In this document: positions 6,630 to 52,556 of the stretch, piece after piece
Layout of the letters: every line of letters starts with the position of its first letter
How positions within the stretch are numbered: the first letter of the stretch is position 1
Assembly: GCA_019248265.1 (NCBI GenBank)
Contig: JAEHGX010000003.1
Coordinates: 32,617 to 96,616 of the forward strand
DNA: 64,000 nt
Direction: 5' to 3'
Origin: Candidatus Falkowbacteria bacterium S5_I03
GTDB lineage: Bacteria; Patescibacteriota; Patescibacteriia; Patescibacteriales; UBA12465
Translations under genes and position numbers: made by a program
Notes under the pieces: generated by a model
What the model was told of the DNA's origin: nothing
The model's database searches: none
Seen by the model: only the letters and a program-made list of their open reading frames with translations

Positions 6630-6657
6630 CTTATATTTCCCCTATTTTAAGAGCGTC

Positions 6658-9600: not shown

Positions 9601-12600
9601 ATCTTCTTTTGTACTACTATCTGGCGCTTCTGCAACTTCAACTTCTTTTTGATCTTTAATCTTAGGAAGAACTTCCTGTAAAGCTTTCCATCTTTCTTCG
9701 TTTTCTACTTCAACTTCAAAGCCAGTTACATCCATTCCTTGAGCCAATGTTCTATATGAATCTATTAATCTACCTTCTGATATCTCTTGCCCTGAGTTTG
9801 TAATAGCCATATAATTTTCATAATCTTTAATATCTGATGCATATTTTTGTTTATCTTCTTTAGACATTTTAGCTATTTGTTTTTTAGTTAGCTTTCCATC
9901 ATATAAAAACACTCCACCTTTAGATAACCATAATTTCATTTTTTCGAACGACATAATAGGTAATTGCAATAGTTTCAATATGAATCCACTTGTAATAGCA
10001 TCAAACTCTACAGATAATGATACTTCAAATGGTCTTTCACCATTTCCAGCTTTTTTATAAGCTCTAACTGCATTTAATCCTTGAAAGAAATGACCTAAGT
10101 GTTCAATCTCTACTTCATATTTTTTACCATCTTTTTTTATCTCAGCTTTATGCTTTTTATCTGTCAAAGCGCCAGTTAGTGTCTCTTCAGATTGTTCAAG
10201 AACAGCATCTGCAAAGTCATATATCTCTTGAGGTGTTTTCTTGTCTATTCCAAATCCAAACGCTTGAGCTATAGCAGTTTTAAAGTATTCTTGTTGTTTA
10301 TTTTTTTCAGCATCTGGACTATTGAAATCCATAATTTGTCTATGAGCTTTTAATGTAACAAGGAATCTATGTAACTTATCTGTCTGAGGATTTACAGTAA
10401 CTGAATCCATATAGAATCTTCCATTTTTACCAAAGAAATATTCAAAATACATCTCATTAGCTTCAGTAGCATCTTTACCAGCTACTTTATCATGCAATGA
10501 TATCAAATTATCATAACTTTCTTCAATCTCTCTATTTCTAGCTTCTGCACTTTCTCTATCATCGAATGCCATTTTCTCTAAATCATCTTCAGTTTTAAAT
10601 CCCATTATTGATAATGTTTGAGATCTATCTCTTTTCTCAAGCATCAAATCTACTGCTTCACTATTAACTTCATACGCTTCTTGTCTAATTTTATTTAATA
10701 CTTTAAAAGACTCATTAGCAGCTTTATTAACTTTACTATTTTTAACTTTATTATTCTTATCTTCTAATGTTTTAGGTTTTGTGAACATCGGACCTTTTGA
10801 ATTCTTCTCTAGCGCCAGTATTGATTGAACCATATCAACTTTTGCTAGAACTTCAGCTTTTAATACACTCATATCTGTTTTTTCTTTAACACTATATTTT
10901 TTACCAATAGCTGGTTTTTTTAATTGAACCATTGGAATTCTTTTAGATTTGCTGTCTTTATCTGTAGTTAAATCATTGAATTCTTTAGCTGCTTCTGCAT
11001 CTATTTCTTCTTGAGTTTTTGAGTTTTCATCTTCTATAAAATTACCATATTTATCTTTTTTTCTATTATCTATTCCAAGAGCTTTAGTATATGTATCAAT
11101 AGGAATAGTTGATTTGTTTAATGGCTCTATATATTCTTTTGCTTGCATATATAGCAATACCATTTGACCAGCATCTGATAACATCTTTGCATACAGTTCT
11201 GAATCTACACCTTCATATACTACTTTTTCACTACCATCTGCATTTTTACCAACTATCTTACTAGCTGGCGCTAATGATAAATTACTAAATGCAGCTTTAC
11301 CAAGATTATCAGCTATAAGCTTTTTAAATAAACCTTCATGTGCAAACGCTTTTTGAATATCAGGACTAACTTCATGTGGTTGTTTACCAAGCATAGCAGC
11401 AATAGCATCTTTATCATTATAAGCTAACTTAGAACTCATAAATGCATAATACTCATCTCCAGCTAACGCAAGAGCTACAGCTACATTTTCGTTAATTTCA
11501 GCCACACCATTGTCTGTCAACCTAAACAATAAACCTCTAAATAAACTATCTTTTGCTTTAAATTTTCTATTTGCTATATCATCATTAGGATCCGAAAGCA
11601 TCTTTTTGAATATGTCTACTGCATCGTCTTTGTATTTTAATATTTCTTTATTGTTAGTTATTTCACTTATAGGCATTCCTGATAATCTATTTTTTCCAAC
11701 TTTTGATGGTTGAACTATTTCGCTTACTCTAACTCTCTGGTATGCTCCACCATCTACTGAAACGGCATTCATATTTGATGATGTATTGTCTATAATATCT
11801 TTAATATAATCAGTACCAGTTAATTTATCTTGTAATAATTTAATCTCTTCTCTTATCTTGTCTCTATTTACTTTATTGCTTGTAGCTAATCTTTCAAACT
11901 GTGTAAACTTATCTTTCAGTTGAGAACCTGAATATTTCTTTCTAGCTTCATCACTATTTAAATATGCATATGCTCCTTTTTGAACTGCATAATCATATTT
12001 AATTTTATATTTTAATTCTTCAATTTTACTTTCTATAGCTTTTATTGCTTCAGATTTTTCAATTTTTTTACTTTCCAAAGCGCCAGTGTTAGAGTCTATA
12101 TCAAAATCTGAATATGTAATCTCAAAGTTGTCATTGAACTCTTTTATGTCATTCATTGTATCTTTATAGTTTATAGCACCACTTATATCTGTATCTCCAT
12201 AATCTATATCAGCATATGTTATTTCACCATTATCAGCAGGTTCTTTGTATGTTATAGGTTCCTTCTCTGCCGGCGCTTTGTTGATATCCTTAGGTTTCTC
12301 TTTTGGTAACATATCAAAATCAATATCACTTATATTCGAATCACCTATATTTTCATCGGACTTAATTTCTTCATCTGAATATGTTATTTTTTCATCTTTG
12401 TATGTAATATCTTCTAAACTTTTATCTACTGGCGCTTTATAAGTTATATCCTCTGGTGGCTTCTTGTCAACAGGAGGTTTTTTATCTTCTGGTTTTTTAA
12501 CTGTATTATCAATGTCAATATCATCTTTTTTATCAAGACTTGCTAATGTTATTCTATTTTTTTTATCTTGCTTAATTAATGTTTTAATTTCTTCAGGTAA

Positions 12601-19942: not shown

Positions 19943-20371
19943 TTATTTCTCGTATCTTTTTTTAACTTTATCAATCCATTCTCTAACTTTATATTTAACT
20001 ATTACACCATTTCTGCACACTGAACCAGGGAGAACCATATCTTTATGTAATGCTATATATATCATCTCTCTATCTCCAGCTTGTTCAATGCAATATTTGA
20101 ACATTTCGTATATACATTGACTAGCTCTTTTTGATTTTTCAACATAGAAAGATGTAAGCAATAATTTATCATCAAAGTCTTCATGGAAACAGAATCCTAT
20201 TATTCTATTTTCATCTACAACTTTTATTCCATCTTTTTTCTTGAGATCCCTTTCGAATCTTATTGCTAATCCTCTAGCGCCAGATGAAGAGCCAGTTATT
20301 GACTCATATTCATCTACCACATAGTTTACGCATATAGCAATATCATCTGGCGCTATTTTATATAATTTCAT
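19943..20371 (-). CDS. hypothetical 142-aa protein, weak GNAT-like features (copy 1)
   Basis: ORF with a beta-strand/helix segment LTSFYVEKSKRASQCIYEMFKYCIEQAG, loosely like GNAT motif A. The functional call has low confidence. Confidence 0.45.
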   Translation of the reverse strand: MKLYKIAPDDIAICVNYVVDEYESITGSSSGARGLAIRFERDLKKKDGIKVVDENRIIGFCFHEDFDDKLLLTSFYVEKSKRASQCIYEMFKYCIEQAGDREMIYIALHKDMVLPGSVCRNGVIVKYKVREWIDKVKKRYEK

Positions 20372-20372
20372 T

Positions 20373-21107
20373 CTACATTCCAGATGTTAGTGTACTATAA
20401 AGCTCAGAAACTTTATCTCCAGTAATAATAGCTGGCTTAGTAGTTAACATCCCAGAACTAAACATTAATCCCCATGCATTTATTTGAGAATCGAATAGTT
20501 TTTGGTATTTATTATCATCAAATCCTCTTTCTTGTCTTGCATACAATGATGTTTGTGCTTCTATATTTAATCTTTGTTTAGCAGATGTTAACTTATCATC
20601 TTCTATCTTGCTAATAGCTGCACTTCCTTGTTCCACTTGTTTTTTAACAAGTTTCATACTTTCCCATACTGCACCTTCATCCATTAATGCTATGACATTT
20701 CCGCTAGAATCTTTTGTTGGAGCACCATATTCTCTTAATAACTTAGCTTGTTGTAGCTGTGTAGTAGCTAAACTTGTTTTGATATCTTCATCTAGTTTAT
20801 CTTTTTGAGCAGCTAAGATATCAAGTTGTAATTCAAGTTCTTCTTTTTTAAGAATTAGCTCTTTCTCTTGGGTAGCCCACTGTAATCCAATACTCATACT
20901 TGAAGCAGTTATATCTCCAACCATTTTACTTATTGTTTCTGCTATAACAGCAGATCTTGCTTCATCAGTTAATGAACCTCTATCTAATAAATCTATAAGA
21001 GTCTCTTTAGCTCTTATGTATATTCCTTCTTTTCCTAATGCTTCTTTTACTAAAGCTCTCTGTTTCTTTATCACATCAAGATTTGTTTCAATTTGTATTA
21101 TTGCCAT
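20373..21107 (-). CDS. hypothetical 244-aa coiled-coil structural-module protein (copy 1)
   Basis: ORF lies 1 nt from the downstream gene. No motif recognised. Confidence 0.55.
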   Translation of the reverse strand: MAIIQIETNLDVIKKQRALVKEALGKEGIYIRAKETLIDLLDRGSLTDEARSAVIAETISKMVGDITASSMSIGLQWATQEKELILKKEELELQLDILAAQKDKLDEDIKTSLATTQLQQAKLLREYGAPTKDSSGNVIALMDEGAVWESMKLVKKQVEQGSAAISKIEDDKLTSAKQRLNIEAQTSLYARQERGFDDNKYQKLFDSQINAWGLMFSSGMLTTKPAIITGDKVSELYSTLTSGM

Positions 21108-21157
21108 AATTTTTCCTTTTTTTTATTTTATTTTATCATAAATTAGATTTTATAATA

Positions 21158-21296
21158 TTATTCATTAAACAATATTCTTGTTTGTTCTTGTCCAGCTAAA
21201 TATAATATTTCTTTTAAATCTAATATTGATAATATTTGCTTACTATTATCTTTTGCTTTCCATTCTATTGTACCATTTTCTTGTAAACCATTTATA
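21158..21296 (-). pseudogene. duplicated 3' fragment (46 codons) of the 150-aa gene 22560..23012
   Basis: Identical to 22560..22698. It lacks a start codon and was created by the tandem duplication. Confidence 0.8.
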
Positions 21297-21344
21297 TATT
21301 ATTTTTTTTACATATTATTTTTCTATCTATTATTTTTTTATCTA

Positions 21345-21773
21345 TTATTTCTCGTATCTTTTTTTAACTTTATCAATCCATTCTCTAACTTTATATTTAA
21401 CTATTACACCATTTCTGCACACTGAACCAGGGAGAACCATATCTTTATGTAATGCTATATATATCATCTCTCTATCTCCAGCTTGTTCAATGCAATATTT
21501 GAACATTTCGTATATACATTGACTAGCTCTTTTTGATTTTTCAACATAGAAAGATGTAAGCAATAATTTATCATCAAAGTCTTCATGGAAACAGAATCCT
21601 ATTATTCTATTTTCATCTACAACTTTTATTCCATCTTTTTTCTTGAGATCCCTTTCGAATCTTATTGCTAATCCTCTAGCGCCAGATGAAGAGCCAGTTA
21701 TTGACTCATATTCATCTACCACATAGTTTACGCATATAGCAATATCATCTGGCGCTATTTTATATAATTTCAT
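21345..21773 (-). CDS. hypothetical 142-aa protein (copy 2, identical to 19943..20371)
   Basis: Identical translation in the ORF track. Confidence 0.45.
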   Translation of the reverse strand: MKLYKIAPDDIAICVNYVVDEYESITGSSSGARGLAIRFERDLKKKDGIKVVDENRIIGFCFHEDFDDKLLLTSFYVEKSKRASQCIYEMFKYCIEQAGDREMIYIALHKDMVLPGSVCRNGVIVKYKVREWIDKVKKRYEK

Positions 21774-21774
21774 T

Positions 21775-22509
21775 CTACATTCCAGATGTTAGTGTACTAT
21801 AAAGCTCAGAAACTTTATCTCCAGTAATAATAGCTGGCTTAGTAGTTAACATCCCAGAACTAAACATTAATCCCCATGCATTTATTTGAGAATCGAATAG
21901 TTTTTGGTATTTATTATCATCAAATCCTCTTTCTTGTCTTGCATACAATGATGTTTGTGCTTCTATATTTAATCTTTGTTTAGCAGATGTTAACTTATCA
22001 TCTTCTATCTTGCTAATAGCTGCACTTCCTTGTTCCACTTGTTTTTTAACAAGTTTCATACTTTCCCATACTGCACCTTCATCCATTAATGCTATGACAT
22101 TTCCGCTAGAATCTTTTGTTGGAGCACCATATTCTCTTAATAACTTAGCTTGTTGTAGCTGTGTAGTAGCTAAACTTGTTTTGATATCTTCATCTAGTTT
22201 ATCTTTTTGAGCAGCTAAGATATCAAGTTGTAATTCAAGTTCTTCTTTTTTAAGAATTAGCTCTTTCTCTTGGGTAGCCCACTGTAATCCAATACTCATA
22301 CTTGAAGCAGTTATATCTCCAACCATTTTACTTATTGTTTCTGCTATAACAGCAGATCTTGCTTCATCAGTTAATGAACCTCTATCTAATAAATCTATAA
22401 GAGTCTCTTTAGCTCTTATGTATATTCCTTCTTTTCCTAATGCTTCTTTTACTAAAGCTCTCTGTTTCTTTATCACATCAAGATTTGTTTCAATTTGTAT
22501 TATTGCCAT
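21775..22509 (-). CDS. hypothetical 244-aa protein (copy 2, identical to 20373..21107)
   Basis: Identical translation in the ORF track. Confidence 0.55.
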   Translation of the reverse strand: MAIIQIETNLDVIKKQRALVKEALGKEGIYIRAKETLIDLLDRGSLTDEARSAVIAETISKMVGDITASSMSIGLQWATQEKELILKKEELELQLDILAAQKDKLDEDIKTSLATTQLQQAKLLREYGAPTKDSSGNVIALMDEGAVWESMKLVKKQVEQGSAAISKIEDDKLTSAKQRLNIEAQTSLYARQERGFDDNKYQKLFDSQINAWGLMFSSGMLTTKPAIITGDKVSELYSTLTSGM

Positions 22510-22559
22510 AATTTTTCCTTTTTTTTATTTTATTTTATCATAAATTAGATTTTATAATA

Positions 22560-23012
22560 TTATTCATTAAACAATATTCTTGTTTGTTCTTGTCCAGCTA
22601 AATATAATATTTCTTTTAAATCTAATATTGATAATATTTGCTTACTATTATCTTTTGCTTTCCATTCTATTGTACCATTTTCTTGTAAACCATTTATAGC
22701 TCTACTCATTCTACTCTGAGAATCCTCATCTCCTTGATACTCAATTCCATTATGAACAACAACTATGTTTTTTACTAACTCATCTCTTATTGATTTGTAA
22801 TTAATTCTATCATATTCTTTGTAATCTTCTTGATTAAGTTCTCTAAATACAACATCAATAGTACCATATTCGTTAGTTGTGCTTGTAAGTATTGGATCTT
22901 CTATATCCAATACTATATATCCATTTGATGTAAGGTAAATGCTATTTTCACTCTCTCCATCTGGAAACAAATCTATTATTTTATTTAGCTCTCTTTTTAC
23001 TGCTACTTTCAT
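22560..23012 (-). CDS. hypothetical 150-aa protein
   Basis: ORF downstream of the tail-fibre gene, with normal amino-acid composition. Confidence 0.55.
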   Translation of the reverse strand: MKVAVKRELNKIIDLFPDGESENSIYLTSNGYIVLDIEDPILTSTTNEYGTIDVVFRELNQEDYKEYDRINYKSIRDELVKNIVVVHNGIEYQGDEDSQSRMSRAINGLQENGTIEWKAKDNSKQILSILDLKEILYLAGQEQTRILFNE

Positions 23013-33744: not shown

Positions 33745-34464
33745 TTATTTAGTGAACTTTAGATTTGCACATTCTGCTAATGTCATTCTCATGAATACCG
33801 ATAATTCTTTTCCTTCTGTTTTTAAAGTCTGGTAATACCATTCTTTACCAGCTTGTGTTTTTATTTGTGCATCTGGATTCCATCCATGATCATCATTTCT
33901 AGTAGCATTCTCTTCTAATCTTTTAAGATATGCATATATTGCTGATATCTTATTAGTTTGAGTTTCTTTGCCATTTGAACCAACTATTGTTACGCATCCA
34001 CCTTGAAACAATGGTTCTATGAACTCATTTCTTTCTGTATATATGTACCTAGCATTTTTTAATAGTGTATGGCTAACGCTCCATGCCTTTGCAAGACCAA
34101 TTATACTTTTAGCTTTATTCTTAGGATTGAATGTTTCCTTACAAGCACTTATAAGCTTCTGAGTTGGAGAAAGATTTCTTCTTGTATTAAATGATTTTAC
34201 AACAACCATAACATCTTCTTCTGTAAGATCATCATCAAGCTCTTTTGCCTTAATTCTTACTCCTGTAGCTAAGCATGCTTTTTGTCTACATCTACCATCT
34301 ACTATTTTATTTCTCCATAATATAACTGGCTCTCTTAATCCATTTTCTCTTATATCTTCTGTTAGAGCTGCTTGCTCAGCCATGTTAGCCATAGGAACTA
34401 TTCCTGCTAGTTCTTCGTTTACTTCAAACGCTTCACCTTCTCTTAGCTCAATATATCTTGTCAT
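33745..34464 (-). CDS. ParB-like nuclease-domain protein
   Basis: NGLREPVILWRNKIVDGRCRQKA matches the ParB/Srx N-terminal motif (P..V......DG..R..A). Confidence 0.6.
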   Translation of the reverse strand: MTRYIELREGEAFEVNEELAGIVPMANMAEQAALTEDIRENGLREPVILWRNKIVDGRCRQKACLATGVRIKAKELDDDLTEEDVMVVVKSFNTRRNLSPTQKLISACKETFNPKNKAKSIIGLAKAWSVSHTLLKNARYIYTERNEFIEPLFQGGCVTIVGSNGKETQTNKISAIYAYLKRLEENATRNDDHGWNPDAQIKTQAGKEWYYQTLKTEGKELSVFMRMTLAECANLKFTK

Positions 34465-34703
34465 TTCTTGTCCTTTTTTATTATATTTGTTTAACGATGT
34501 AATAATATATGATTTATACTTAATTCTGGCTTAATTTTGTCTGATTTTTTATTTAAATCAGACATTTGTCTGATTTTTTTTATCAAAATAGGACAAATTT
34601 TTCCGATTGGCTATTTTAATTTTTACTACATGTTTTATTTATTATAATGTTTTGTCCGATTGAGTATTACTTGTCATACATTATGTTTATCATTTTGTCA
34701 ATT

Positions 34704-34868
34704 TTGGTACCAATGGTACCATTGGTACCGTTTTATTTTTGTACCATTGGTACATAATTCGATACCATTTTTTTTGGTATCAATGATACCGTTTTGTTTG
34801 GTATCGAATTATTTTGACACCATCTTGATTTGGTGTCATTGACACCGTTCTATTTTGGTGTCAAAATT
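34704..34868. repeat. array of co-varying 6-bp inverted repeats (three families)
   Basis: GGTACC occurs at 34706, 34715 and 34724, plus GTACCattGGTAC at 34741-34753. GATACC/GGTATC pairs lie at 34761/34776 and 34785/34800. GACACC/GGTGTC pairs lie at 34816/34832 and 34841/34857. Loops are 9-10 nt and T-rich. Confidence 0.85.
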
Positions 34869-35082
34869 TTCACAGACTTAGAGCTGACTTAAGAAAGTCT
34901 TTTTGTTGTCCGATATTTTTTAATGAGTATGCCATGAAATCGAACATCTGTATTTTTGATTAAAATATTTATTTATTGATGTTTTTTGAAAAAAGGACAC
35001 ATATGTCTTTTTTTTATATATATTAATATATATTATATGGATAGTCTTTTTTTATTTTAATAAACCAAAAAAACCCAAACCC

Positions 35083-35174
35083 CTACAACCACCGCTCGGA
35101 AACGCAGCACGGGAAATTGCGTAGCGTAGCGTAGCAATTTGACTAGTGCAAGTGCAACGAGAAGGTGGTTGTAG
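35083..35174. other. GC-rich structured element A (candidate ncRNA or terminator)
   Basis: The 11-bp outer stem is CTACAACCACC / GGTGGTTGTAG. The inner stem AAATTGC/GCAATTT encloses GTAGC x3. It shares CACCGCTC..GAAA with elements B and C. On the minus strand it is followed by GGGTTTGGGTTTTTTTGG. Confidence 0.5.
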
Positions 35175-35277
35175 CATCAGCACGAAGTAGCGAAAAAAAG
35201 AAACATTGGATTTATTCTCAATAGAGCCAGTTAGGGATGGTACCTATGACACTATTATCTGGCGCTAGAGATAAATT

Positions 35278-35784
35278 TTAATTAATCTTTTTAGAACATG
35301 CTTCTTTATACATAAGCTCTTCTCTTTCCCAGTTATCTTGAGATACTACTAATCTTGGATTTATTATGTAGCATCCTCTTTTGTATCTAACAACAAGATC
35401 TTTTTCTCTTAGTGTTTTGTATGCTATTTTTATGTATTTCTTTTCTGTCTCAGTAAGAGTTGAATTATCAATATGTGTTATATTTGATTTTTTATAACCA
35501 AACTCATCAACATTATTTCTATTTTTCATTAACAATTTAAACATAAAACCTTCAGGTTTTGTCATATTTAAAAGCTCTTCTGTGTAATCCATACTGTGTG
35601 CCCTACTTTCTTTATTTTTGTTTCCACTTCCTACCATTATGAACGATGGCTTCATTTTTCCATCATTTTCAACTACTAGCTTCTTTCCAGCAGGAAGAAC
35701 TATTTGATGAGTCTTCATCATTTCATCTGATTCTAAGATTCTATCCTGTATAATCTTATTATCAATTGAGGCAATCTTCTCCAT
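35278..35784 (-). CDS. hypothetical 168-aa protein with a putative DNA-binding domain shared with ORF 121..780
   Basis: KKYIKIAYKTLREKDLVVRYKRGCYIINPRLVV aligns by eye with KKGMAKSYKNLVDMNILIRIKRNVYMINPNFII of the HNH fusion protein. Confidence 0.5.
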   Translation of the reverse strand: MEKIASIDNKIIQDRILESDEMMKTHQIVLPAGKKLVVENDGKMKPSFIMVGSGNKNKESRAHSMDYTEELLNMTKPEGFMFKLLMKNRNNVDEFGYKKSNITHIDNSTLTETEKKYIKIAYKTLREKDLVVRYKRGCYIINPRLVVSQDNWEREELMYKEACSKKIN

Positions 35785-36054
35785 TGTCTCTCCTTTTTAT
35801 TTATTTAATCATCAAACTTTCTTATTGTACACAATCTAAGCTTAAAGATAGGTGAACGAATCACCCCCTTATCTCACTCGATAAGGTACTAAATCACCCC
35901 CTTATCTATTTAAATAAACATCGAGTTTATCGAGACTATTTGATTTTTCCTTCTATAAGAATTATATAGGAAGCTTTTCTTAGCGCCAGCTAGAGATGCT
36001 GATTGTATTTTCGTTTTGATTTTTTTGTCCAGACTGGACGGTTTTATACTCATG

Positions 36055-36146
36055 TAAGCCAGCTTTGTGCACCGCTCTCGAAAATTTTTTACTACGCACT
36101 CCGTGCTTCGTAAAATAATTTTCTCGTTTGCGCCCATGCTGGCTTA
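36055..36146. other. GC-rich structured element B (candidate ncRNA or DNA cruciform)
   Basis: The 9-bp outer stem is TAAGCCAGC / GCTGGCTTA. Conserved blocks are TGCACCGCTCTC (36068-36079) and TCGTTTGCGC (36124-36133). Inner stems are GAAAATT/AATTTTC, TTTTAC/GTAAAA and GCAC-tcc-GTGC. Confidence 0.6.
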
Positions 36147-44799: not shown

Positions 44800-47700
44800 T
44801 CAATATGAATCATATGCACTATATTCTTCATCACTGTGTCTATTTATCATTCCATATATATCATCTGCTGCAACTTTACCATCTTTAATTTTTGTAGGTA
44901 TATATGACATATTCTTAGCTGGATAAATCACTTCTAATGCATTTATCATTGATAATAAGTCCATACCATCATCATGCTTACAGTTATGGATAACCATATT
45001 ATTTGAAGAAAAGTTATTTGTTCCTTTTACTTCAAAATCATAAACTGGTTCTATTTTTCTCTTTTCTATTTTTATTATTAAACTTGTACTTGCAACTATT
45101 TGAGCAATACTTGAATTTTGTAGTCTTTTCAATAAATTCTTTTCCACATTCTCTGCATGTGCATCTTGCAGTGAGCTTGTTTCTATCAATATCTCCACAT
45201 TCTTTTGAGCAAAACTTTCGTGAAGAGCTTCTAATTGTTTCAAATTCATTGTTGCACGACAAGCACAATCGAAACTCAACTTTACTTCTTCTGTTTTTTT
45301 CAGTATGTATTTTTCCGCACTCTTCTGAACAGCATATTTGATTTGCTGATTTTTGTTCAAATTCAGAATTGCATACAACACATTGCTTTGTAGTAAGTTC
45401 AGAATAGTTCTCATTTTTTTGAAGTTTACTGTGTTTTCCTCTGCATGATTCGCTACAGAATTTTGTTTCATTTTTAGCTTTATCATTGATTTCAAACTTA
45501 CAATTACAGTACGGACAAATCCTATTTTTGTCTCTGTTTTTTCTTTTTTCTTCTCTTTTTGAACTTTCATAATCTCTTCTTTGTTCTCTATTGTGCCAGT
45601 GTTTTTTTCCTCCAACATGCATAAGCTGATGATCTTCAGGCGATAATATTTCAAGATTAGAAGGTTCGTTATTGTCTTTATTTTCATCTTTATGATGAAC
45701 TTCATATCCTTTTTTAATTTCTCCATTTTCTCTTTCATATATTTCACGATGAAGCCATTTTCTTTTTCCATTAATTGATGTTGTTGATTGATAATATCCA
45801 CTTTTTTGTCTTGTCCATTTGTATCCATATTTGATAATTTGCATTCTATATTCCTAATTATTAAGTCAGTAGACGTCAAATCTTTTACCATAACATATCC
45901 TCTCATGGTTAGAACCTTATGCTCAGCAGTAAGGTGCATCTCTCCATCAATTGTTGTTATAGTATAGGTTTGTTCTACTCCTGTAATTATAGGATTACTT
46001 GCCTTAGAGTTTACTGACGTATAGCCATTTTGTGTCAAAACACTATCATTATGTCTTATGTCGCTCATCATTATTTTTCCATTTGGAGTATCAACAAGCG
46101 TGTCTCCACTAACACAGTTGAATCTTGTATAGCTTGTATATCTAATTTCATCCATTAATTCAACCATATCAGGACTATGTCTCAATTCTTCAGGGAAGAA
46201 TATTTTTCTATTCTGAAACATTGGTAACATCATTCTCATTCTCCAATGTTTGCTTCCACCTTCAAGTCTTGATAATATTCCCTCAGCGCCAGGTTGAGAG
46301 CCTCTTTGTCTAGCAATAGTGAAATAATTCATTCTTTGTCTCATTCTATCTTTTAAGGCATGTATATGTGGTCTCTGATTACCATCAACCTCTACACCAA
46401 CTTCAAATGTTTTATTCTCTGGAGTGTATGTGTCTACAAACCTAAACACTTCATTGTACTGTTGCTCTGTTTCTTGCCTTCGAAGACATAAATCTAACAT
46501 AAACCAGTCCTGATTATGATTTACAGCCCACACAGCTATACCACTTAAATCTGAACCTTTATTACCAGTTGTTGTAAAGTCTGTAGTCATATATAAATTA
46601 TATGCATATAAGTTTTTTAATATATCTGTACGCTTATACCATTGGCTTTCAAGCAATTTATCAGGAATCAATTTATCTTCCTCTGAGCTAATTCTAAGCA
46701 TTAACTCTTGCATGAACTCTCTTAGCGTATCTCCATAATAAGCATCTTCATATTTCTCCATAATTGCTTCAAAAGGCTTCATAGCTTCCCATGAACCACG
46801 GTATTCACTCTTAGGCATGTCTAAATATATCTTTTCACATACTGGTAAGCAAACAGGTGTCCAAACTCCACCCTCAAGCGCAGCATAAACTGGATCTTTT
46901 TTATTAAATGGCGTATTAACAATTATAATTTTACCTTTTTTACCTAGTGCATTCTCTGCATCTGAGTAAATCATAGACTTTAACTTAGCCATAATAATAG
47001 CTGAACCAGCATCTGCTTCGTTCTTTATAATATCATCGAAAGTAAAGCAGTTTTTAGACCTACCAAATGCCGTAATATAGGTACTTTTTGGCTCATTTCC
47101 TCTTGTTCTATCTTTGATTGTTATTGGCACAACTTTTAAATCTTTAACTTCATTTGATTCTTTAAACTGTCTCCACAACATTCCATCTTTTATATGTACT
47201 TGTTTAAAGTGTACTTTCTTGCTAGCCGATACATCTATTCCTAAAACTTCTTTTACATTCTCTACTAATCTTAATTCCCATTGATGATTTATATCGTGTT
47301 CTCTTCCAGTTGATGTGAACACTTGCTTTCCAGCTTTTTTAGTATTTCTAATATATGTTGGTAACCCAAGCCTGCTACATATAACTTGCAATTGCTTTAA
47401 AACATTTAGATTTACACTGTTTATTCTAACCTGTTGAGAAGTTTTTTTGTTATCTATGTATCCATCTGCTGCTATATACCCAAGCAATATTTGCTTTTGT
47501 TTTTCAAAATCTAACTTTAATATCCAATCTGGCATATTCTTAATACTATTTCCATTTTTGTGTGATGCTAACCATCTTGCTATTGCTGAATGATTTGCTA
47601 TGTATAAATCACATCCAGCTCCTTTTACAGTACTTACTCCTTTATTGTACTTACTAAAGAACTCTTTTATTTTTTCTGCTATTTTTGGCTGAGTATGTGC

Positions 47701-48999
47701 AACACTCCATCCAAAACTATTATATTTGTATATTCCTTCTTTATGTTTGTTTTTACCATGAATTTGACCATCCCCAAGCCATAATCCATATAACCACCAC
47801 CATTCATTATCATTGAAATATTCTGGAACTTTATATTCAGGAACATATTCTGTATTTACTATCGAACCATTTTCTCTTCTTTCTGTTATATTGCTAATAA
47901 GATGCTCTATTGCTTTGACATCTTCAACTCTATAATCTATAGGACTTCCTAGCCAATGTCTTCTTGTTATGTTTTTAGCTTCGCACCATTCTGGCGCTTC
48001 TTCAATATAATTTTTAACTAATCTCTTTTCAGATTTACTCCATATCTGATCATTTGTACATTTTTTTGTCCAATATTTATGATCTTTTGTAACTCTTTCT
48101 GATTCAGTTAATCCAAATAATTTTATTTCTAATCCATCTTCTATATGTACACCATGATTAAACGGATATTCTTCAACTCTCATTATTCCTAAATCTGTTT
48201 CAATTATTGTTCCAACTTCATGACATTGAGGTCTCTCAGTTTTATACCTAATACCCCTTACTGACCCACCAGCTGCTCCTTTAACCTTAAACATGAAGCA
48301 TCTTTTCTTAATAGGTAATGGATTTTTTGGATCATCTTTTCTAATGAACTCACATTCTTCATCAGTAAACCTCATTTTCTCGAAATAGTCTTTGCAGAAC
48401 AAACTATCTTCGCATATATCTCTAATCGTATTTGCTTGTACTTTAGCTCCAGCTTGTTGTGAATCTCCAAATGAAACCCAGAACATTACATCACCAAAAT
48501 TTGGCATCTTACCAGTTATAGCTGTAACAATTGGCATAAATGCAGTAATTATTGTAGATTTTGCAGAAAAACGACTAGCGATAATAGCTATTTTTTTGCT
48601 ATTTAATCTAATTTTTTCGTTAATTTCTTGGCTATATGGAAAATTTTCTCTCTTGATGTTTCCATAAACAAGGTCAACAAGGAAGTAATGCATTAATGCA
48701 TTATCTGTCTCAAAATCTTCTCCATAAACAAGCCTCATAATATTGAAAAACTCTATTGCATCTCTACTTGGTGTGTATCCATTAAATGTTAAATCTATAC
48801 AATCTAATGCTTTATCAACATTAAACTCATATCGTTCATGTTTTTTAGGAATTATCTCTTTTGGAGCTTCTTCTATTCCTTCCTCTACAGCTTTTTCATA
48901 AGCTTTCCAGTTTTCATAGGCAATACTATCGTCACCTTCAATCTCTGGACTCACATTTGGATTAATTATCTCTATTTCTGGCGCTTTGCTAGTTTCCAT
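44800..48999 (-). CDS. terL: terminase large subunit precursor interrupted by two inteins (1,399 aa; about 629 aa after splicing)
   Basis: A Walker-A-like segment IIASRFSAKST lies at aa 141-149. After removal of intein 1 the junction reads RGIRYKTERPQ-CFTFDDI (Walker B-like hhhhDD). After removal of intein 2 it reads TRFN-CKHDDGMD (nuclease acidic motif). Confidence 0.75.
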   Translation of the reverse strand: METSKAPEIEIINPNVSPEIEGDDSIAYENWKAYEKAVEEGIEEAPKEIIPKKHERYEFNVDKALDCIDLTFNGYTPSRDAIEFFNIMRLVYGEDFETDNALMHYFLVDLVYGNIKRENFPYSQEINEKIRLNSKKIAIIASRFSAKSTIITAFMPIVTAITGKMPNFGDVMFWVSFGDSQQAGAKVQANTIRDICEDSLFCKDYFEKMRFTDEECEFIRKDDPKNPLPIKKRCFMFKVKGAAGGSVRGIRYKTERPQCHEVGTIIETDLGIMRVEEYPFNHGVHIEDGLEIKLFGLTESERVTKDHKYWTKKCTNDQIWSKSEKRLVKNYIEEAPEWCEAKNITRRHWLGSPIDYRVEDVKAIEHLISNITERRENGSIVNTEYVPEYKVPEYFNDNEWWWLYGLWLGDGQIHGKNKHKEGIYKYNSFGWSVAHTQPKIAEKIKEFFSKYNKGVSTVKGAGCDLYIANHSAIARWLASHKNGNSIKNMPDWILKLDFEKQKQILLGYIAADGYIDNKKTSQQVRINSVNLNVLKQLQVICSRLGLPTYIRNTKKAGKQVFTSTGREHDINHQWELRLVENVKEVLGIDVSASKKVHFKQVHIKDGMLWRQFKESNEVKDLKVVPITIKDRTRGNEPKSTYITAFGRSKNCFTFDDIIKNEADAGSAIIMAKLKSMIYSDAENALGKKGKIIIVNTPFNKKDPVYAALEGGVWTPVCLPVCEKIYLDMPKSEYRGSWEAMKPFEAIMEKYEDAYYGDTLREFMQELMLRISSEEDKLIPDKLLESQWYKRTDILKNLYAYNLYMTTDFTTTGNKGSDLSGIAVWAVNHNQDWFMLDLCLRRQETEQQYNEVFRFVDTYTPENKTFEVGVEVDGNQRPHIHALKDRMRQRMNYFTIARQRGSQPGAEGILSRLEGGSKHWRMRMMLPMFQNRKIFFPEELRHSPDMVELMDEIRYTSYTRFNCVSGDTLVDTPNGKIMMSDIRHNDSVLTQNGYTSVNSKASNPIITGVEQTYTITTIDGEMHLTAEHKVLTMRGYVMVKDLTSTDLIIRNIECKLSNMDTNGQDKKVDIINQQHQLMEKENGFIVKYMKEKMEKLKKDMKFIIKMKIKTITNLLILKYYRLKIISLCMLEEKNTGTIENKEEIMKVQKEKKKEKTETKIGFVRTVIVSLKSMIKLKMKQNSVANHAEENTVNFKKMRTILNLLQSNVLYAILNLNKNQQIKYAVQKSAEKYILKKTEEVKLSFDCACRATMNLKQLEALHESFAQKNVEILIETSSLQDAHAENVEKNLLKRLQNSSIAQIVASTSLIIKIEKRKIEPVYDFEVKGTNNFSSNNMVIHNCKHDDGMDLLSMINALEVIYPAKNMSYIPTKIKDGKVAADDIYGMINRHSDEEYSAYDSY
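44983..46116 (-). mobile_element. intein 2 (378 aa), mini-intein splicing blocks flanking an invaded insert
   Basis: It starts at Cys962 (CVSGDTLVDTPNG) and has block B TAEH. Blocks F/G read VYDFEVKGTNNFSSNNMVIHN, followed by the +1 Cys1340. Confidence 0.75.
45038..45844 (-). CDS. HNH endonuclease with four CxxC...C..C zinc-ribbon repeats, nested in intein 2 in a different reading frame
   Basis: The HNH core is YEVHHKDENKDNNEPSNLEILSPEDHQLMH. The repeats are CPYCNCKFE..FCSESC, CVVCNSEFE..CCSEEC, CLSCNNEFE..FCSKEC and CRECGKEFIE..YCSNSC. The frame offset from terL is 2 nt, since (48999-45844) mod 3 = 2. Confidence 0.7.
   Translation of the reverse strand: MQIIKYGYKWTRQKSGYYQSTTSINGKRKWLHREIYERENGEIKKGYEVHHKDENKDNNEPSNLEILSPEDHQLMHVGGKKHWHNREQRRDYESSKREEKRKNRDKNRICPYCNCKFEINDKAKNETKFCSESCRGKHSKLQKNENYSELTTKQCVVCNSEFEQKSANQICCSEECGKIHTEKNRRSKVEFRLCLSCNNEFETIRSSSRKFCSKECGDIDRNKLTARCTCRECGKEFIEKTTKFKYCSNSCKYKFNNKNRKEKNRTSL
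47050..48225 (-). mobile_element. intein 1 (392 aa) with a LAGLIDADG homing endonuclease
   Basis: It starts with Cys259 (CHEVGT) and has block B TKDH. LAGLIDADG motifs are LYGLWLGDG and LLGYIAADGY. It ends ...GRSKN followed by the +1 Cys651. The penultimate His is absent. Confidence 0.7.
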
Positions 49000-50639: not shown

Positions 50640-51002
50640 CTAAGCGCCAGATAAGTATGACCATAGAGCATCACAGCATTCTTTATATAATGAACAAGTT
50701 GTATATGCTCTATATTCATCACATTCAAAATCATGAGCTTCCATAATAAATGTAACAGCATGAACAACTTCATGTAGCAATGTAAGCTTTACATCATCTA
50801 TATTATCTTTCTTCTTTAATCCAATAATCAACTTTCTATATCCATCTACTTCATAGTAGAACGATGTGCATTGTCCAGTTGTTGCTGGACTTATTCTACA
50901 TTCCAAGTTGTACTTCTCTAGCATCTTCCTGTAATCTTTTAATCCATAACACAGTATCAATTCATCGTACATCAAATGTTTTAACTTTATCTTCTTTATC
51001 AT
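50640..51002 (-). CDS. small HExxH metallopeptidase-like protein (120 aa)
   Basis: LTLLHEVVHAVTFIME (HEVVH at 50760-50774) has the same HE..HA context as the modules in the two giant virion proteins. Confidence 0.45.
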   Translation of the reverse strand: MIKKIKLKHLMYDELILCYGLKDYRKMLEKYNLECRISPATTGQCTSFYYEVDGYRKLIIGLKKKDNIDDVKLTLLHEVVHAVTFIMEAHDFECDEYRAYTTCSLYKECCDALWSYLSGA

Positions 51003-51047
51003 TTTATTTTCCTATTTATTTTTTCTATACTGCGTATAGTGCTTATG

Positions 51048-51124
51048 TTGCACACTTTACTGCACCGCTCTCCAAAATGCTCGCTGTCGCTCGACATTTT
51101 GTCGTTTGCGCAGCCAGTGTGCAA
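51048..51124. other. GC-rich structured element C (paralogue of element B)
   Basis: The 9-bp outer stem is TTGCACACT / AGTGTGCAA. Conserved blocks TGCACCGCTCTC (51061-51072) and TCGTTTGCGC (51102-51111) lie at the same 4-nt distance from the stem as in B. The inner stem is CAAAATG/CATTTTG. Confidence 0.6.
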
Positions 51125-51138
51125 AGTGTTTGGATGAT

Positions 51139-51888
51139 TTATTGTTTACCTATGTATTTAGCAAGTATTCTTTTTGCTATTTCAATTGAATCATCTATTC
51201 CGCATTTGTTTACAAGTTCAGTCATTGAATCATTTATGAATTCATTTTCTGATTCTGTATATTTAAAGTCTTTAGGTTTTCCAAGCCTAGACATTCTATC
51301 TTCTTTTAAATATGAATTTATTGTTCTAAGATTATTTGTATAATTTGGCATTATTGAACTACCTATATTAAACTTGTTTCCATTAAACAAAAATTCTATT
51401 AGGTCCGGCGCTCTTTCAGATAATGTTTTTACTTCACTTAGATTAGTTCTTGTTACTCCAAATTTTTCAGCAGCTGTTCCTTGGCTAACTTTTGTTGATT
51501 CATTTAATGATTGCTCAACATAATAATTGTAAGCCATAATTGCTCTTTGTGTTGGAGTCTGGTGTCTTCTTGTTTCAAGGCTTAGCACTTGACTCTCTAT
51601 GTCTGATTCAGACAGTCCTTCTTCAACAACTGATTTTATTGTTGTTTCACATAATTCAACAGCTGCTCTTAATCTATGTCTTCCGTCATACATATCATAT
51701 TCTATCCCATCAGGTCTATCAATATCTATCTTTAATAGTTTAACTGGCTCAAGCTGACCATTTGTTCTTATATCCAATTTAAATGCTTCATAGCATGCAT
51801 CATCCATCATTGGTGTAAGCTTTGCATATTTATGTATTCTTATTTTTGATATATCAATTTGCTGTACATTTATAGTATTTTTATTCAT
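51139..51888 (-). CDS. ParB-like nuclease-domain protein (second copy of the fold)
   Basis: NGQLEPVKLL...YDMYDGRHRLRAAVE matches the ParB/Srx motif. I prefer the start at ATG 51888 (AAGGA upstream) over the track start at 52005. Confidence 0.55.
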   Translation of the reverse strand: MNKNTINVQQIDISKIRIHKYAKLTPMMDDACYEAFKLDIRTNGQLEPVKLLKIDIDRPDGIEYDMYDGRHRLRAAVELCETTIKSVVEEGLSESDIESQVLSLETRRHQTPTQRAIMAYNYYVEQSLNESTKVSQGTAAEKFGVTRTNLSEVKTLSERAPDLIEFLFNGNKFNIGSSIMPNYTNNLRTINSYLKEDRMSRLGKPKDFKYTESENEFINDSMTELVNKCGIDDSIEIAKRILAKYIGKQ

Positions 51889-51906: not shown

Positions 51907-52012
51907 TGTTCCCATATTATATCTTATTTTAGGAACAATGTCAATATTAATATGGTGTTCCTGCGGGAACACTTTTACGACACTCGATTTATATGTTGTT
52001 CCCAAAGGAACA
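51907..52012. promoter_or_regulatory. three TGTTCC...GGAACA inverted repeats (operator-like)
   Basis: The repeats are TTGTTCC (51907)/GGAACAA (51932), GTGTTCC-tgcg-GGAACAC (51955-51972), and TTGTTCC-caaa-GGAACA (51996-52012). They lie upstream of the ParB-like gene. Confidence 0.5.
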
Positions 52013-52556
52013 TCTTTGATTTATTATATATAATGTTCTATATATAAGGACAATCATGTTGCAACATTACTTTCTGCACTGGCGCTTTGTGGATTGATTG
52101 GTATACCTATTAGTGCTACTTTGATACTTAATTGTATCTTAAGTATGTATGCTAGAATGTAGGCAATTGCCCGGTTGAGAAAACTAGACAACTTTTTTAC
52201 AAATATTGGCAGGCGCAACCATATTGCATTATATATTATAAGCCAAGGCAGAATGTGACCTATGTCTGCCAAATTGTGTTATGTAAGTATGTAATATATG
52301 CTTAAGCCAACTTTAAGGTTATGCTATACGCATATGTAAATTTTTTTTTTGAAGACTTATAGTTACTGCTAAAAGACAAATACTAAATTGCCTACCCCCC
52401 GTACTTCTAGTTTGCCTATGGTTGTTATTTTGGGTTGTCTCTATACTGGCGCTCATCTCTATCTGGCGCTTACTTCAACCATCTCATCTGCTCATCTATG
52501 TCTTCCCTTAGATGGAGTGGTAAGCTTAGGCTTATACATTAATCTAAGGATTTATT

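Follow-up and report, generated by a model that had tools for sequence, protein, structure and literature searches.

A covarying stem-loop module in an uncultured N4-like phage as a candidate portable expression cassette

Element C, an intergenic element on the minus strand of the 64,000-nucleotide stretch analyzed here (the window), belongs to a family that, as judged by fold prediction and sequence comparison, is a clean structured motif supported by covariation and outside Rfam. By its gene content, the window is that of an uncultured N4-like phage with a genome of ~88-kb and a virion RNA polymerase (vRNAP). We tentatively suggest that C might be a portable intergenic expression cassette of this phage, similar to the promoter-early stem-loop (PeSL). 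On the strand of the downstream gene, such a cassette would comprise a short flank, a stem-loop of 75-90 nt with an AGCG-rich apex, and a CAUAAGC linker. Its 3' part would consist of a mini-hairpin of 4-6 bp with a 3-nt loop, an A6-7 tract, a ribosome-binding site (RBS) and an ATG.

The vRNAP is encoded by the window itself, where phrog_2206 (E = 5e-83 and 9e-151) is matched by two ORFs, at 6658-15462 and 2289-6629. PF21867 (vRNAP_dom_2) is recorded on the orthologue, and the portal of the phage is 34% identical to Schitoviridae portals. The samples are of wastewater and crustacean-associated origin, with an AT-rich host. Element C lies between a ParB-like gene and a gene for a HExxH protein, and the parts of this region are as follows.

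51139..51888, minus strand: ParB-like gene upstream of C (probable start 51888)
51124..51141, minus strand: conserved 5' flank of module C, UAA-AUCAUCCAAACACUU, which includes the ParB-like stop codon (51139-51141)
51049..51123, minus strand: large stem-loop C (fold, covariance model, covariation)
51116-51123 with 51049-51056, minus strand: P1 of C (fold)
51108-51114 with 51059-51065, minus strand: P2 of C, with two G.U pairs
51095-51101 with 51073-51079, minus strand: P3 of C (fold)
51080-51094, minus strand: apical part of C, carrying GAGCGA and CAGCGA
51102..51107, minus strand: 5' strand of the internal loop, AAACGA (sequence conservation)
51066..51072, minus strand: 3' strand of the internal loop, GAGAGCG, then GUGC, whose U is in the invariant G.U pair
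51040..51048, minus strand: linker of C, ACAUAAGCA (four-way and fourteen-way alignments)
51025..51039, minus strand: mini-hairpin of C, CUAUAC-GCA-GUAUAG; the loop on the template (plus) strand is TGC, with a central purine
51018..51024, minus strand: A6 tract and first pyrimidine (U at 51018), 14 nt from the loop center
51003..51017, minus strand: A-rich leader of C, with the RBS AGGAAA at 51008-51013 (sequence)
50640..51002, minus strand: 120-aa HExxH (HEVVH) gene, the constant downstream partner of C-type modules (ORF; homologues)

These positions bear out an earlier note on this DNA, which had placed a T run with CTATAC-tgc-GTATAG at 51025-51039 and a structured element beyond it. On the plus strand, T6 at 51019-51024 precedes the hairpin, and the structured element spans 51049-51123. 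The minus-strand ATG is likewise found at 51002-51000, 22 nt beyond the hairpin, and the ParB-like ORF stops at 51139-51141.

The predicted RNA fold of C is far stronger than that of its controls. The minus strand folds at -36.3 kcal/mol (z = -5.7), and none of 200 shuffles is as good, while the plus strand of the region reaches only z = -2.2; folded as DNA, C has z = -2.9. Covariance models score C at 85 bits (R1) and 68 bits (R2). The 5' strand of the internal loop, AAACGA, is conserved in the related copies B and E, with a CAAUGA variant in copy D; together with P3 of C it reads CGACAAAAUG, which resembles the RSB core of the plasmid origin ssoA. On the 3' strand, GAGAGC is invariant in 16 of 16 sequences. 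The G.U pair is also present in 16 of 16, and the orthologue in locus L047 shows U>G at this position. Across the family, the linker follows the motif [CG]AU[AG]AG[CU]. Overlapping ORFs on C (41 aa), B (75 aa) and E (49 aa) were considered as coding sequences and rejected, because conserved loop nucleotides explain their similarity, their starts are inconsistent and the stems covary.

C is one of five paralogous modules, each of roughly 130 bases, in the phage genome. Covariance models R1 and R2 place A, B and C in the window and D and E elsewhere in the same genome, a count that is a minimum, the search having covered all but ~7.7 kb of the ~88-kb genome. The earlier note had described C as the structural partner of B; this holds, with common loops and covarying stems, but the two are not a mere pair. 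The R1 and R2 search also recovered orthologues of the family in ten metagenome loci. The full unit is a strand-specific stem-loop of 75-90 nt with an asymmetric internal loop (5' GCGC-AAAC-GA ... GA-GAGC-N-GUGC 3'), followed in order by the CAUAAGC linker, the mini-hairpin (usually with a GCA loop), an A6-7 tract, an RBS and an ATG.

The stems of this family vary while pairing is kept. Between B and C, loop sequences of 10 nt and 11 nt are exactly common, and 9 of 23 stem pairs differ on both sides. Among 12 distinct family sequences, 95% of cells pair, versus 40-47% in slid controls. Compensatory change is found in 14 of 23 pairs across the same 12 sequences, and none of 500 shuffles scored as high. 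RNAalifold independently recovered the same helices. The structure is also strand-specific, with an invariant G.U pair and better folding of the sense strand.

The two other copies in the window comprise the following features.

36056..36145, minus strand: paralogue B, a large stem-loop after a CHAP endolysin gene (111 bits, fold)
36020..36039, minus strand: mini-hairpin of B, GUCCA-GUC-UGGAC (36027-36039), with an A7 tract at 36020-36026 (sequence)
35086..35171, plus strand: paralogue A, diverged and antisense to its neighbors (R2 26.5 bits, E = 8e-4)

B and A lie in the late-gene block, where they bracket a RepL-like gene (35278-35784) as an inward-facing inverted pair. D and E are located where the plus block ends, and about 1 kb separates C from the divergent junction (52.0-52.5 kb). 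In the window, B has a decayed leader without an ATG; its orthologue in locus L029 keeps an RBS and an ATG 26 nt downstream. The apical loop of A is GCGUAGCGUAGCGUAGC, its folds favor the plus strand, and its 3' flank, CAUCAGCAC...A7, fits the family layout. A and D are both antisense to their neighbors, keep the features of the sense strand and have no downstream gene. These two paralogues must count as orphans or have another role, and a simple reading of the module as an upstream regulator does not explain them.

Rfam 15 covariance models gave no matches at gathering thresholds over the whole window, and permissive thresholds around C and B gave only noise (E above 3; lncRNA and snoRNA models). 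ARAGORN found no tRNA or tmRNA, and a DNA similarity search against 50,697 phage records found nothing. IMG/VR scans with the ParB-like protein, the HExxH protein and a degenerate pattern of the element detected no relative. An exact-core pattern, GCACCGCTCTC...TCGTTTGCGC, had one IMG/VR match and 12 GTDB matches, all in GC-rich genomes; these were rejected as homologues because none has the P3 helix or the outer pairing and their number fits chance. In remoter relatives found through the ParB-like protein (46-73% identity), no spacer follows that gene, and the contig parts examined hold no copy of the stem-loop family. This suggests that the element is restricted to a narrow lineage.

The mini-hairpin, by comparison of its copies, belongs to a conserved unit with the large stem-loop. 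Each of the copies B, C, D and E has one at 8-20 nt past the large stem-loop, against a background rate of about 0.28 per kb for such a hairpin followed by an A5 run. The four stems all differ (6, 5, 5 and 4 bp; besides that of C, GUCCA/UGGAC, AUCU/AGAU and CUACU/AGUAG), and C, D and E have a GCA loop. Read on the template strand, the loops are TGC (C, D, E) and GAC (B), with a central purine in all four. The 3-nt-loop hairpin singled out in the earlier note is thus under selection, with covarying stems, a conserved loop and a fixed spacing to the A tract.

This spacing differs from the 10-12 nt that the note had predicted: the regular distance is 14 nt. Copies C and E, the window's own B and the B of L029 all have this distance between the loop center and the first pyrimidine. 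In B of L036, where there is no gene, it is 13 nt, and among the orphan D copies it relaxes to 15-19 nt. The U at 51018, the first pyrimidine, is a candidate start or cleavage point. The ATG lies 22-26 nt past the hairpin in C, E and B of L029. Some variants of the C-type leader carry a 13-nt duplication, which extends the distance from hairpin to ATG to 35 nt in L033; this distance is therefore not fixed at 22 nt.

We considered the mini-hairpin as a genome-wide promoter and rejected this, as the GCA-loop hairpin with an A run stands beside the big stem-loops only. The motif was not found elsewhere in about 80 kb of genome, presumed early region included, which argues that it is not the general promoter of this phage. 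The promoter or processing role proposed in the earlier note is a reasonable analogy, because the vRNAP-encoding N4-like group uses DNA-hairpin promoters with stems of 4-7 bp and 3-nt loops.

The modules are more conserved than the genes around them. Between phage variants, modules are 88-99% identical, and identity falls to 33-66% in the flanks. The 5' flank of C (51124..51141) is identical across variants with a different upstream gene, and conservation starts about there. Upstream of C, the gene is one of two ParB-like variants or a 116-aa ORF; downstream of E, the ORF is 88 aa or 73 aa; and both neighbors of B vary. Downstream of C, the HExxH gene, which in the earlier note would be the direct output of the small hairpin if that is a promoter or processing site, is the constant partner in every variant seen. 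All sampled members of its 42 homologues have C in an upstream gap of 140-150 nt. The HExxH protein matches phrog_1365 at E = 9e-7 and, weakly, SprT-like proteins; it has no match among PDB sequences, and a single-sequence AlphaFold model (pLDDT 44) is too poor for a fold search. C itself is identical at 75 of 75 positions between phages whose HExxH genes are 86% identical in nucleotides. Total identity across diverged phages exceeds the need of a purely structural RNA, and this counts against the cassette reading.

Under the cassette reading, the large stem-loop would end, pause or be cleaved from the transcript of the upstream gene and insulate the downstream gene, probably bound by a specific factor. 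For C, the incoming transcript would start at the ParB-like gene's own consensus sigma-70 promoter (TTGACA-17-TATAAT at 51944-51916, flanked by TGTTCC-N4-GGAACA palindromes). By its geometry, the mini-hairpin with its A tract may fix where the downstream mRNA begins, ~14 nt from the loop center. This could occur through hairpin-promoter initiation of the N4/LUZ7 type by a phage RNA polymerase or, alternatively, through endonucleolytic processing that leaves a protective 5' hairpin. The module would also be a crossover point for the exchange of accessory genes: the pattern is seen in its near-identity among phages with differing flanking genes, and the mechanism can be surmised from it.

Neither a sigma-70 promoter nor an intrinsic terminator is recognized within the module. 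A sigma-70 promoter was rejected because B, C, D and E have no conserved -35/-10 pair, and the module is thus not literally a PeSL. The promoter scan found only the B-specific TGGACA-18-TACAAT, which cannot serve the gene of L029. An intrinsic terminator scan reported none on the minus strand at C. After the large stem-loop the sense strand reads ACAUAAGC..., then an A run after the mini-hairpin; there is no U tract, and the large stem-loop is thus not a canonical intrinsic terminator. The N4 determinants (-8G, -10G and the GC-rich heptamer) are absent: on the template strand, position -8 has A or C and position -10 has T (G in B alone), and the stems are AT-rich. The GNA-type loop (GCA) is on the non-template strand, the opposite of N4.

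A rather unlikely alternative is that the module acts purely post-transcriptionally, as a processing or stability site for an RNase III-type enzyme or phage endoribonuclease in polycistronic mRNA, with no promoter. The mini-hairpin would then simply protect the 5' end of the processed downstream mRNA or modulate its translation. In favor of this, an asymmetric internal loop interrupts a long intergenic helix of about 22-30 stacked bp, and several paralogues have common loop sequences and covarying stems. The invariant G.U pair, the other wobbles and the fold of C (z = -5.7 as RNA versus -2.9 as DNA) favor RNA. C also lies inside an operon driven by a consensus sigma-70 promoter, and the A-rich single-stranded stretch by the RBS suits a processed leader. 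However, A and D are antisense to all neighboring genes yet retain the sense-strand wobbles and loops, and no promoter was found that would transcribe D in its own sense. Nor would a translation-control hairpin predict a fixed spacing of 14 nt from hairpin to pyrimidine with a variable 22-35 nt from hairpin to ATG.

It is also conceivable, though improbable, that the stem-loops act as single-stranded DNA. They would then be strand-specific initiation or recombination signals similar to ssoA/palA, serving as priming sites or ssDNA promoters that mark the ends of cassettes derived from RepL-type replicons in the phage genome. ssoA is characterized by two signature motifs, RSB (TTATGCCGAGAAAATTT) and CS-6 (TAGCGT) in the terminal loop. 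The sense strand of B carries CGAGAAAATT, which matches the RSB core at 10 of 10 positions, and C, D and E match at 8 of 10 in the same place. Against the full RSB pattern (TTATGCCGAGAAAA[CT]TT), this core is all that is in common, and the flanking TTATGC is absent. The apical loop contains TAGCGT in A (twice), in D and in B of L036, and GCGTAG in B and in E of L032; C has AGCGA twice, and E of L026 lacks the motif. ssoA is specific for orientation and strand, and plasmids recombine at RSB; the orientation of A and D is independent of local transcription.

Gene content adds to this resemblance. B (minus) and A (plus) bracket a RepL-like gene with iterons, and in L032, E and D bracket a 73-aa ORF and a 148-aa RepL (PF05732, 21.5 bits versus a cutoff of 20.3). 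A small ORF with RepL is also the content of pSN2-family plasmids. N4-like phages are known to use ssDNA hairpins, and d(GNA)-type triloops form very stable DNA mini-hairpins. On a further elaboration, which we regard as a little more doubtful again, the stem-loops would be miniature ssoA-like priming sites or ssDNA promoters delimiting RepL-type mini-replicon cassettes of roughly 1 kb, with B/A and E/D as the ends of excisable rolling-circle units.

Nevertheless, the family model misses the genuine palA of pT181 (best 8 bits), and the family lacks both the ~160 nt length of ssoA and its conserved 3' half (GGAAATTGGAATAA, seen on the 3' arm in pT181, pNE131 and pE194). A blastn search against 72,556 plasmids gave no matches. 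The Pfam RepL matches are weak, and an NCBIfam search of the RepL-like proteins returned nothing. RepL-like homologues in other contigs have no family copy nearby, and C has no RepL neighbor. As a DNA hairpin, C would be weakened by two G.T mismatches within the 7 bp of P2 (DNA z -2.9). A conserved module that reaches exactly to an RBS and ATG in three paralogue types is left unexplained. Membership in ssoA was rejected as homology and is kept as a resemblance only.

A reading of the large stem-loops as generic stable hairpins that block transcription in both directions or protect 3' ends, with sequences conserved through recent duplication or gene conversion and not for a specific function, is very improbable: read in the sense of their neighbors, A and D are followed by G/U-rich tails with U runs (GGGGUUUGGGUUUUUUU, GAGGGUGAGGGUUGUUUUUGUUUU) at operon ends, and the identity of C-type copies across phages is expected after recent exchange, but those U runs begin 4-14 nt past the stem and are non-canonical, the sense copies have no U tract, the linked mini-hairpin with its covarying stems is unexplained, and P1, P2 and P3 are wholly different between paralogues while loops and G.U are identical, the opposite of what duplication predicts.

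If the cassette reading is true, N4-like phages own a version of the mobile regulatory cassette of T4-type phages, in which a structured, factor-binding stem-loop with a start signal of the hairpin type takes the place of the sigma-70 promoter. It would offer a handle on how accessory ORFans, possibly with roles in host takeover or anti-defense, are expressed and insulated, and on where recombination shuffles them. It would also give access to the promoter grammar of highly divergent vRNAP/RNAPII, which is known only for N4 and LUZ7. From its conserved, asymmetric internal loop, the element is predicted to have a specific protein partner. With RepL-like genes alongside, the partial ssoA match raises a possible link between phage hairpin signals and rolling-circle plasmid origins. 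Should the mini-replicon reading be the true one, the phage would carry plasmid-like parasites or shuttles, with hairpin DNA signals beyond vRNAP promoters.

Several known systems share part of this layout. In cluster K mycobacteriophages, the SAS is a linear motif of 13 bp that overlaps the RBS, and some extended SAS have inverted repeats. Like the module, SAS are repeated conserved motifs immediately before the start codons of a subset of genes; the conserved part of the module, in contrast, is a large covarying structure with a mini-hairpin. The RNase III signals of T7 (R0.3, R1.1 and others) are intergenic paralogous hairpins with two helices and an internal loop. They share with the module a conserved loop sequence, variable stems and the separation of cistrons in a polycistronic mRNA. 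The T7-type geometry, an irregular helix of ~20 bp or more with an internal loop, is found in B, C and E, with A and D antisense. All T7 sites are in the mRNA sense, whereas two of the five module copies are antisense, and the loop sequences are unrelated.

The ssoA/palA elements of the pT181, pE194 and pSN2 family are, like the module, strand-specific imperfect hairpins at cassette junctions with RepL-type genes nearby. In the family, the 5' arm carries an RSB-like CGAGAAAA(TT), and a CS-6-like TAGCG(T/A) lies in the terminal loop. However, the module is about half the size, neither covariance models nor blastn cross-detect the two, and the module belongs to a linear dsDNA phage and leads into an RBS and ATG.

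Hairpin promoters of N4 and N4-like phages have a stem of at least 4 bp and a 3-nt loop whose central base on the template strand is a purine, and the start site lies 11-12 nt from the hairpin center in N4 and 13-15 nt in LUZ7. The module comes from a vRNAP-encoding phage of the same group, and its mini-hairpins agree in stem length (4-6 bp), in loop size (3 nt) and in the purine at the loop center of the template strand. A homopolymer spacer likewise separates the hairpin from the presumed start, and the module's spacing of ~14 nt from the center is similar in geometry only. Unlike N4, the module has no set of -8G, -10G and +1C with a GC-rich heptamer centered at -11, its template-strand spacer is T and not A, and its GNA-type loop is on the other strand. 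Its hairpins are dispersed and do not appear to cluster at a genome end or before recognizable early genes, and they always accompany a large upstream stem-loop that N4 promoters are missing.

PeSLs are mobile regulatory cassettes of T4-type phages (Arbiol, Comeau and Krisch 2010; Comeau et al. 2014) and a precedent for cassettes of stem-loop and promoter that mediate shuffling. They differ from the module in having a strong sigma-70 -35/-10 with an AT-rich UP element, none of which is conserved in the phage module. Their stem-loop is a simple G-run/C-run terminator, while that of the module is an irregular helix of 75-90 nt with a conserved internal loop and no U tract. Their hosts are T4-like myoviruses and not an N4-like podovirus, in which two of the module copies are inverted. 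Nonetheless, both are small composite intergenic modules in which a stem-loop is followed by the start signals of the next gene, with many copies per genome. Both lie beside ORFan accessory genes and are conserved while flanking genes are inserted, deleted or replaced. The breakpoints that mark PeSLs are seen here as well, with modules 88-99% identical, flanks 33-66% identical and differing neighboring genes.

The large stem-loop C, upstream of the gene for a 120-aa HExxH protein, is part of a five-member, covariation-supported, strand-specific composite that marks gene-cassette boundaries. This module is confined to a narrow N4-like phage lineage, known from wastewater and animal-associated metagenomes. 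At the site of C we find:

51000-51002, minus strand, ATG (51002-51000) of the 120-aa HExxH ORF
51019-51024, + strand, T6
51025-51039, + strand, mini-hairpin CTATAC-tgc-GTATAG
51049-51123, minus strand, GC-rich stem-loop C, occupying the gap up to the ParB-like stop
51139-51141, minus strand, stop codon of the ParB-like ORF

All genes around C lie on the minus strand. The minus-strand RNA of C (51049-51123) folds as one long irregular hairpin (-36.3 kcal/mol, z = -5.7, 0/200 shuffles). Over 138 nt around C, z is -5.8 on the minus strand versus only -2.2 on the + strand; the G.U pairs, of which the minus strand has several, account for the difference. Paralogue B shares with C exact copies of GCGCAAACGA and GAGAGCGGUGC, the sequences that make up an asymmetric internal loop, and 9 of its 23 stem pairs are changed on both sides relative to C. 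Together with the fold scores of both elements, this indicates that the C/B structure is real and far beyond chance. These results confirm the earlier note, which had placed a structured element and a small hairpin here and paired the element with B.

The family extends beyond this pair. R1, a covariance model trained on B and C, detected no other copy in the window, and two further copies (D and E) outside it in the same genome. A degenerate pattern search recovered ten metagenome loci with B-, C-, D- and E-type orthologues, and a second model (R2) matched a diverged fifth paralogue, A. The paralogues of C are:

36056-36145, minus strand, B, architecture as in C, fold z = -6.0
35086-35171, + strand, A, antisense to its neighbours, R2 match (26.5 bits, E = 8e-4)
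L026:6713-6792, E, sense orientation relative to its neighbours, R1 match (L026 is another part of the same genome)
L026:7954-8039, D, antisense to its neighbours, R1 match

Across 12 distinct family sequences, 95% of cells pair, versus 40-47% with slid partners. Compensatory changes occur at 14 of the 23 pairs, a level reached by none of 500 shuffles. RNAalifold independently recovers helix P1, the core of P2, a lone C-G (U.G in D) and P3. In the consensus, P1 has 8 bp of free sequence; P2, which has one invariant G.U, ends in G[CG]GC / GU[GC]C; the internal loop is 5' [AC]AA[CU]GA / 3' GAGAGCN; and P3 has 7 A/U-rich bp below a variable apex rich in (U/G)AGCG. The sole substitution seen in any C-type orthologue (GCGGUGC to GCGGGGC, locus L047, 9880-9954) alters the U of this otherwise invariant G.U. 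No Rfam family matched the stem-loop. Where GC-rich genomes match the exact core, the helices are missing, and these matches were rejected as chance, not homologues; short ORFs overlapping the stem-loops were likewise rejected as coding, being by-products of conserved loop nucleotides.

All sense-readable copies carry, 3' of the large stem-loop, a linker with [CG]AU[AG]AG[CU], then a mini-hairpin, then an A6-7 tract. The mini-hairpins are:

C, CUAUAC-GCA-GUAUAG
E, CUACU-GCA-AGUAG
D, AUCU-GCA-AGAU
B, GUCCA-GUC-UGGAC

Four different stems in one layout argue for selection on the hairpin itself. The distance from loop centre to first non-A, always a pyrimidine, is 14 nt in those C and E copies that are linked to a gene, as in the B copies of the window and of locus L029; it is 13 nt in B of L036, which has no gene, and it drifts out to 15-19 nt among the orphan D copies. 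The ATG follows the hairpin by 22-26 nt, or 35 nt where the leader has a 13-nt duplication. A GCA-loop hairpin with an A run occurs nowhere else in ~80 kb of this genome, so it is a component of the module and not the phage's general promoter motif. CTATACGCA, a 9-mer of the C mini-hairpin, recurs once (52324-52332, + strand) inside ATGC-TATAC-GCAT with T10 after it. The site is within the 550-nt divergent intergenic region ahead of the + strand gene block (window 52300-52350), and this second of two exact copies may be an unrelated hairpin signal or chance.

Between phage variants, module identity is 88-99% from ~20 nt upstream of P1 to the ATG, and over the 200 nt on each side it is often down to 33-66%. 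Upstream of C-type modules lies this ParB-like gene, a different one, or a 116-aa ORF; downstream is always the HExxH gene. Two variants differ in the ORF that follows the E-type module, 88 aa long in one and 73 aa in the other. The gene upstream of the B-type module encodes a CHAP endolysin in the window and another lysin in L029, where a 137-aa ORF begins 26 nt past the hairpin; in the window, RBS and ATG have disappeared from the B leader, and what follows is a RepL-like cassette. C is identical at 75/75 positions (74/75 in L047), as are linker, hairpin and A tract, where the HExxH gene has only 86% nucleotide identity. At that divergence ~15 changes are expected over the ~112 nt compared, so the unchanged module implies very strong constraint or homogenisation by exchange. 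Relatives further away, whose ParB-like protein is 46-73% identical, lack both the spacer and a copy at the C position. The hairpin and the constant HExxH neighbour partly support the earlier suggestion of a promoter or processing hairpin feeding that gene, with B as partner, but five members make this too narrow.

The window is from a distant N4-like phage of ~31% GC. Matches to the virion RNA polymerase family fall in two ORFs (6658-15462 and 2289-6629). Against known Schitoviridae portals, that of this phage reaches only 34% identity, and no match at the DNA level was found among 50,697 phage records. The polymerase is split over these adjacent ORFs (2934 aa + 1446 aa, window 2289-15462); that of N4 is one polypeptide of ~3500 aa. 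The same 88,415-bp genome, with an identical C, is present in NCBI GCA_019248035.1 and sister assemblies. Minus-strand late genes extend downward from ~52.0 kb, with a + strand block from 52557 onward. The most probable start of the ParB-like gene is 51888, and the gene is preceded by a perfect sigma-70 consensus promoter (TTGACA-17-TATAAT, 51944-51916), which places C within a transcription unit driven by host RNA polymerase. TGTTCC-N4-GGAACA palindromes overlap or flank this promoter (51955-51972 and 51997-52012, plus a half-site within the spacer; window 51916-52012), and the whole suggests a host-RNAP promoter under repressor control in an N4-like phage. Relative L002 has the same arrangement of palindromes and sigma-70 promoter.

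Other features of this genome were observed. The terminase large-subunit ORF (window 44800-48999) has 1399 aa and carries signatures of an intein and of LAGLIDADG, as marked by Pfam on its orthologue; the terminases of relatives, at 595-633 aa, lack them. The 8-mer CTGGCGCT has 84 copies in 64 kb (~1.3 per kb), where chance predicts ~0.28 copies in all, about equally on both strands and in both genic and intergenic sequence (e.g., 50643-50650, 35982-35989, 52446-52470), with weakly conserved flanks (A/T at -1 and -2, T/A past the motif). In density and in its balance between strands it is reminiscent of a DNA-uptake-type, modification-site or nick-site word, and because of it many proteins end in or contain ...SGA. 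An apparent ~1.4-kb tandem duplication (window 20270-22640) comprises two 244-aa ORFs (20373-21107 and 21775-22509) and flanks, with identical CTGGCGCT contexts and small hairpins (e.g., 21222/22624, 20635/22037). A non-coding gap of 649 nt (L026 3897-4545, ~4.2-4.9 kb upstream of the window's first position) lies beside NUMOD/HNH homing-endonuclease-like genes. It is partly like displaced coding sequence of a helicase-like gene, intact in locus L032, and may be an intron or homing-endonuclease insertion.

A processing site that acts on RNA alone, in the manner of T7 RNase III sites, is conceivable but doubtful: it fits the helix geometry, wobble pairs and operon context, and leaves unexplained A and D, which are antisense to every neighbour yet retain the wobble pairs of the sense strand and have their better fold on that strand.

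A signal at the ssDNA level is unlikely. The plasmid ssoA/palA signatures are RSB (TTATGCCGAGAAAATTT) and CS-6 (TAGCGT) in the terminal loop; B contains CGAGAAAATT, 8/10 of which occurs at the same position in other paralogues, and the apices of A, B and D, and of E in L032, contain TAGCGT or GCGTAG. RepL is the pSN2-family initiator, whose plasmids carry ssoA, and weak RepL homologues lie beside D, inside the B/A pair and, in L032, inside the E/D pair; B/A and E/D each form inverted repeats that face inward and enclose a cassette of ~0.9-1.2 kb. However, genuine palA (pT181, pNE131, pE194) has a conserved 3' arm, GGAAATTGGAATAA, is about twice as long, goes undetected by R2 and has no blastn link. 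Furthermore, no family copy lies near RepL-like homologues elsewhere, and a module ending at RBS and ATG would be left unexplained. The relation to ssoA/palA is resemblance, not membership.

Within the late-gene block there is a plasmid-like module (window 33745-36145), the whole of it bracketed by A and B:

33745-34464, second ParB-like gene
34700-34870, cluster of 15-bp palindromes GGTAYC-AWT-GRTACC, with a T run before each
35278-35784, RepL-like gene, Pfam RepL below cutoff
35859-35907, two 16-nt direct repeats, AATCACCCCCTTATCT, upstream of the RepL-like gene

Generic hairpins or terminators are very improbable, since a recent duplication predicts conserved stems and free loops, the opposite of the pattern seen, even though G/U-rich tails come after A and D when these are read in the direction of their neighbours. 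A and D may double as operon-end barriers.

We tentatively favour a composite in which the large stem-loop would be a factor-bound transcript boundary, the mini-hairpin and A tract would set the 5' end of the downstream mRNA, through initiation or cleavage, and the whole module would be the unit of cassette exchange. The observations are of structure, spacing and breakpoint pattern only; from these we infer a putative termination or processing step and start site.

This combination recalls two known systems. In the PeSL cassettes of T4-type phages, a stem-loop and the next gene's start signals are repeated beside ORFans and serve as recombination junctions. The module has the same pattern at gene-exchange junctions, but lacks the sigma-70 promoter that defines PeSL. 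DNA-hairpin promoters are a known alternative in the N4 group: N4 vRNAP promoters have 5-7 bp stems and 3-nt loops, those predicted in Pseudomonas N4-like phages have 4-5 bp stems and 3-nt loops, and in LUZ7 such hairpins precede the early and middle start sites by 13-15 nt. Recognition in this group involves the central loop purine of the template strand. The mini-hairpins share this geometry (4-6 bp stems, template loops TGC/GAC with a central purine, a homopolymer spacer and a constant 14 nt), but they do not have the sequence determinants of N4, and their dispersed location does not seem to fit N4 either. The RNA/DNA motif itself is undescribed and its function putative; its kinship in kind is with a PeSL-like cassette and an N4-type hairpin signal.
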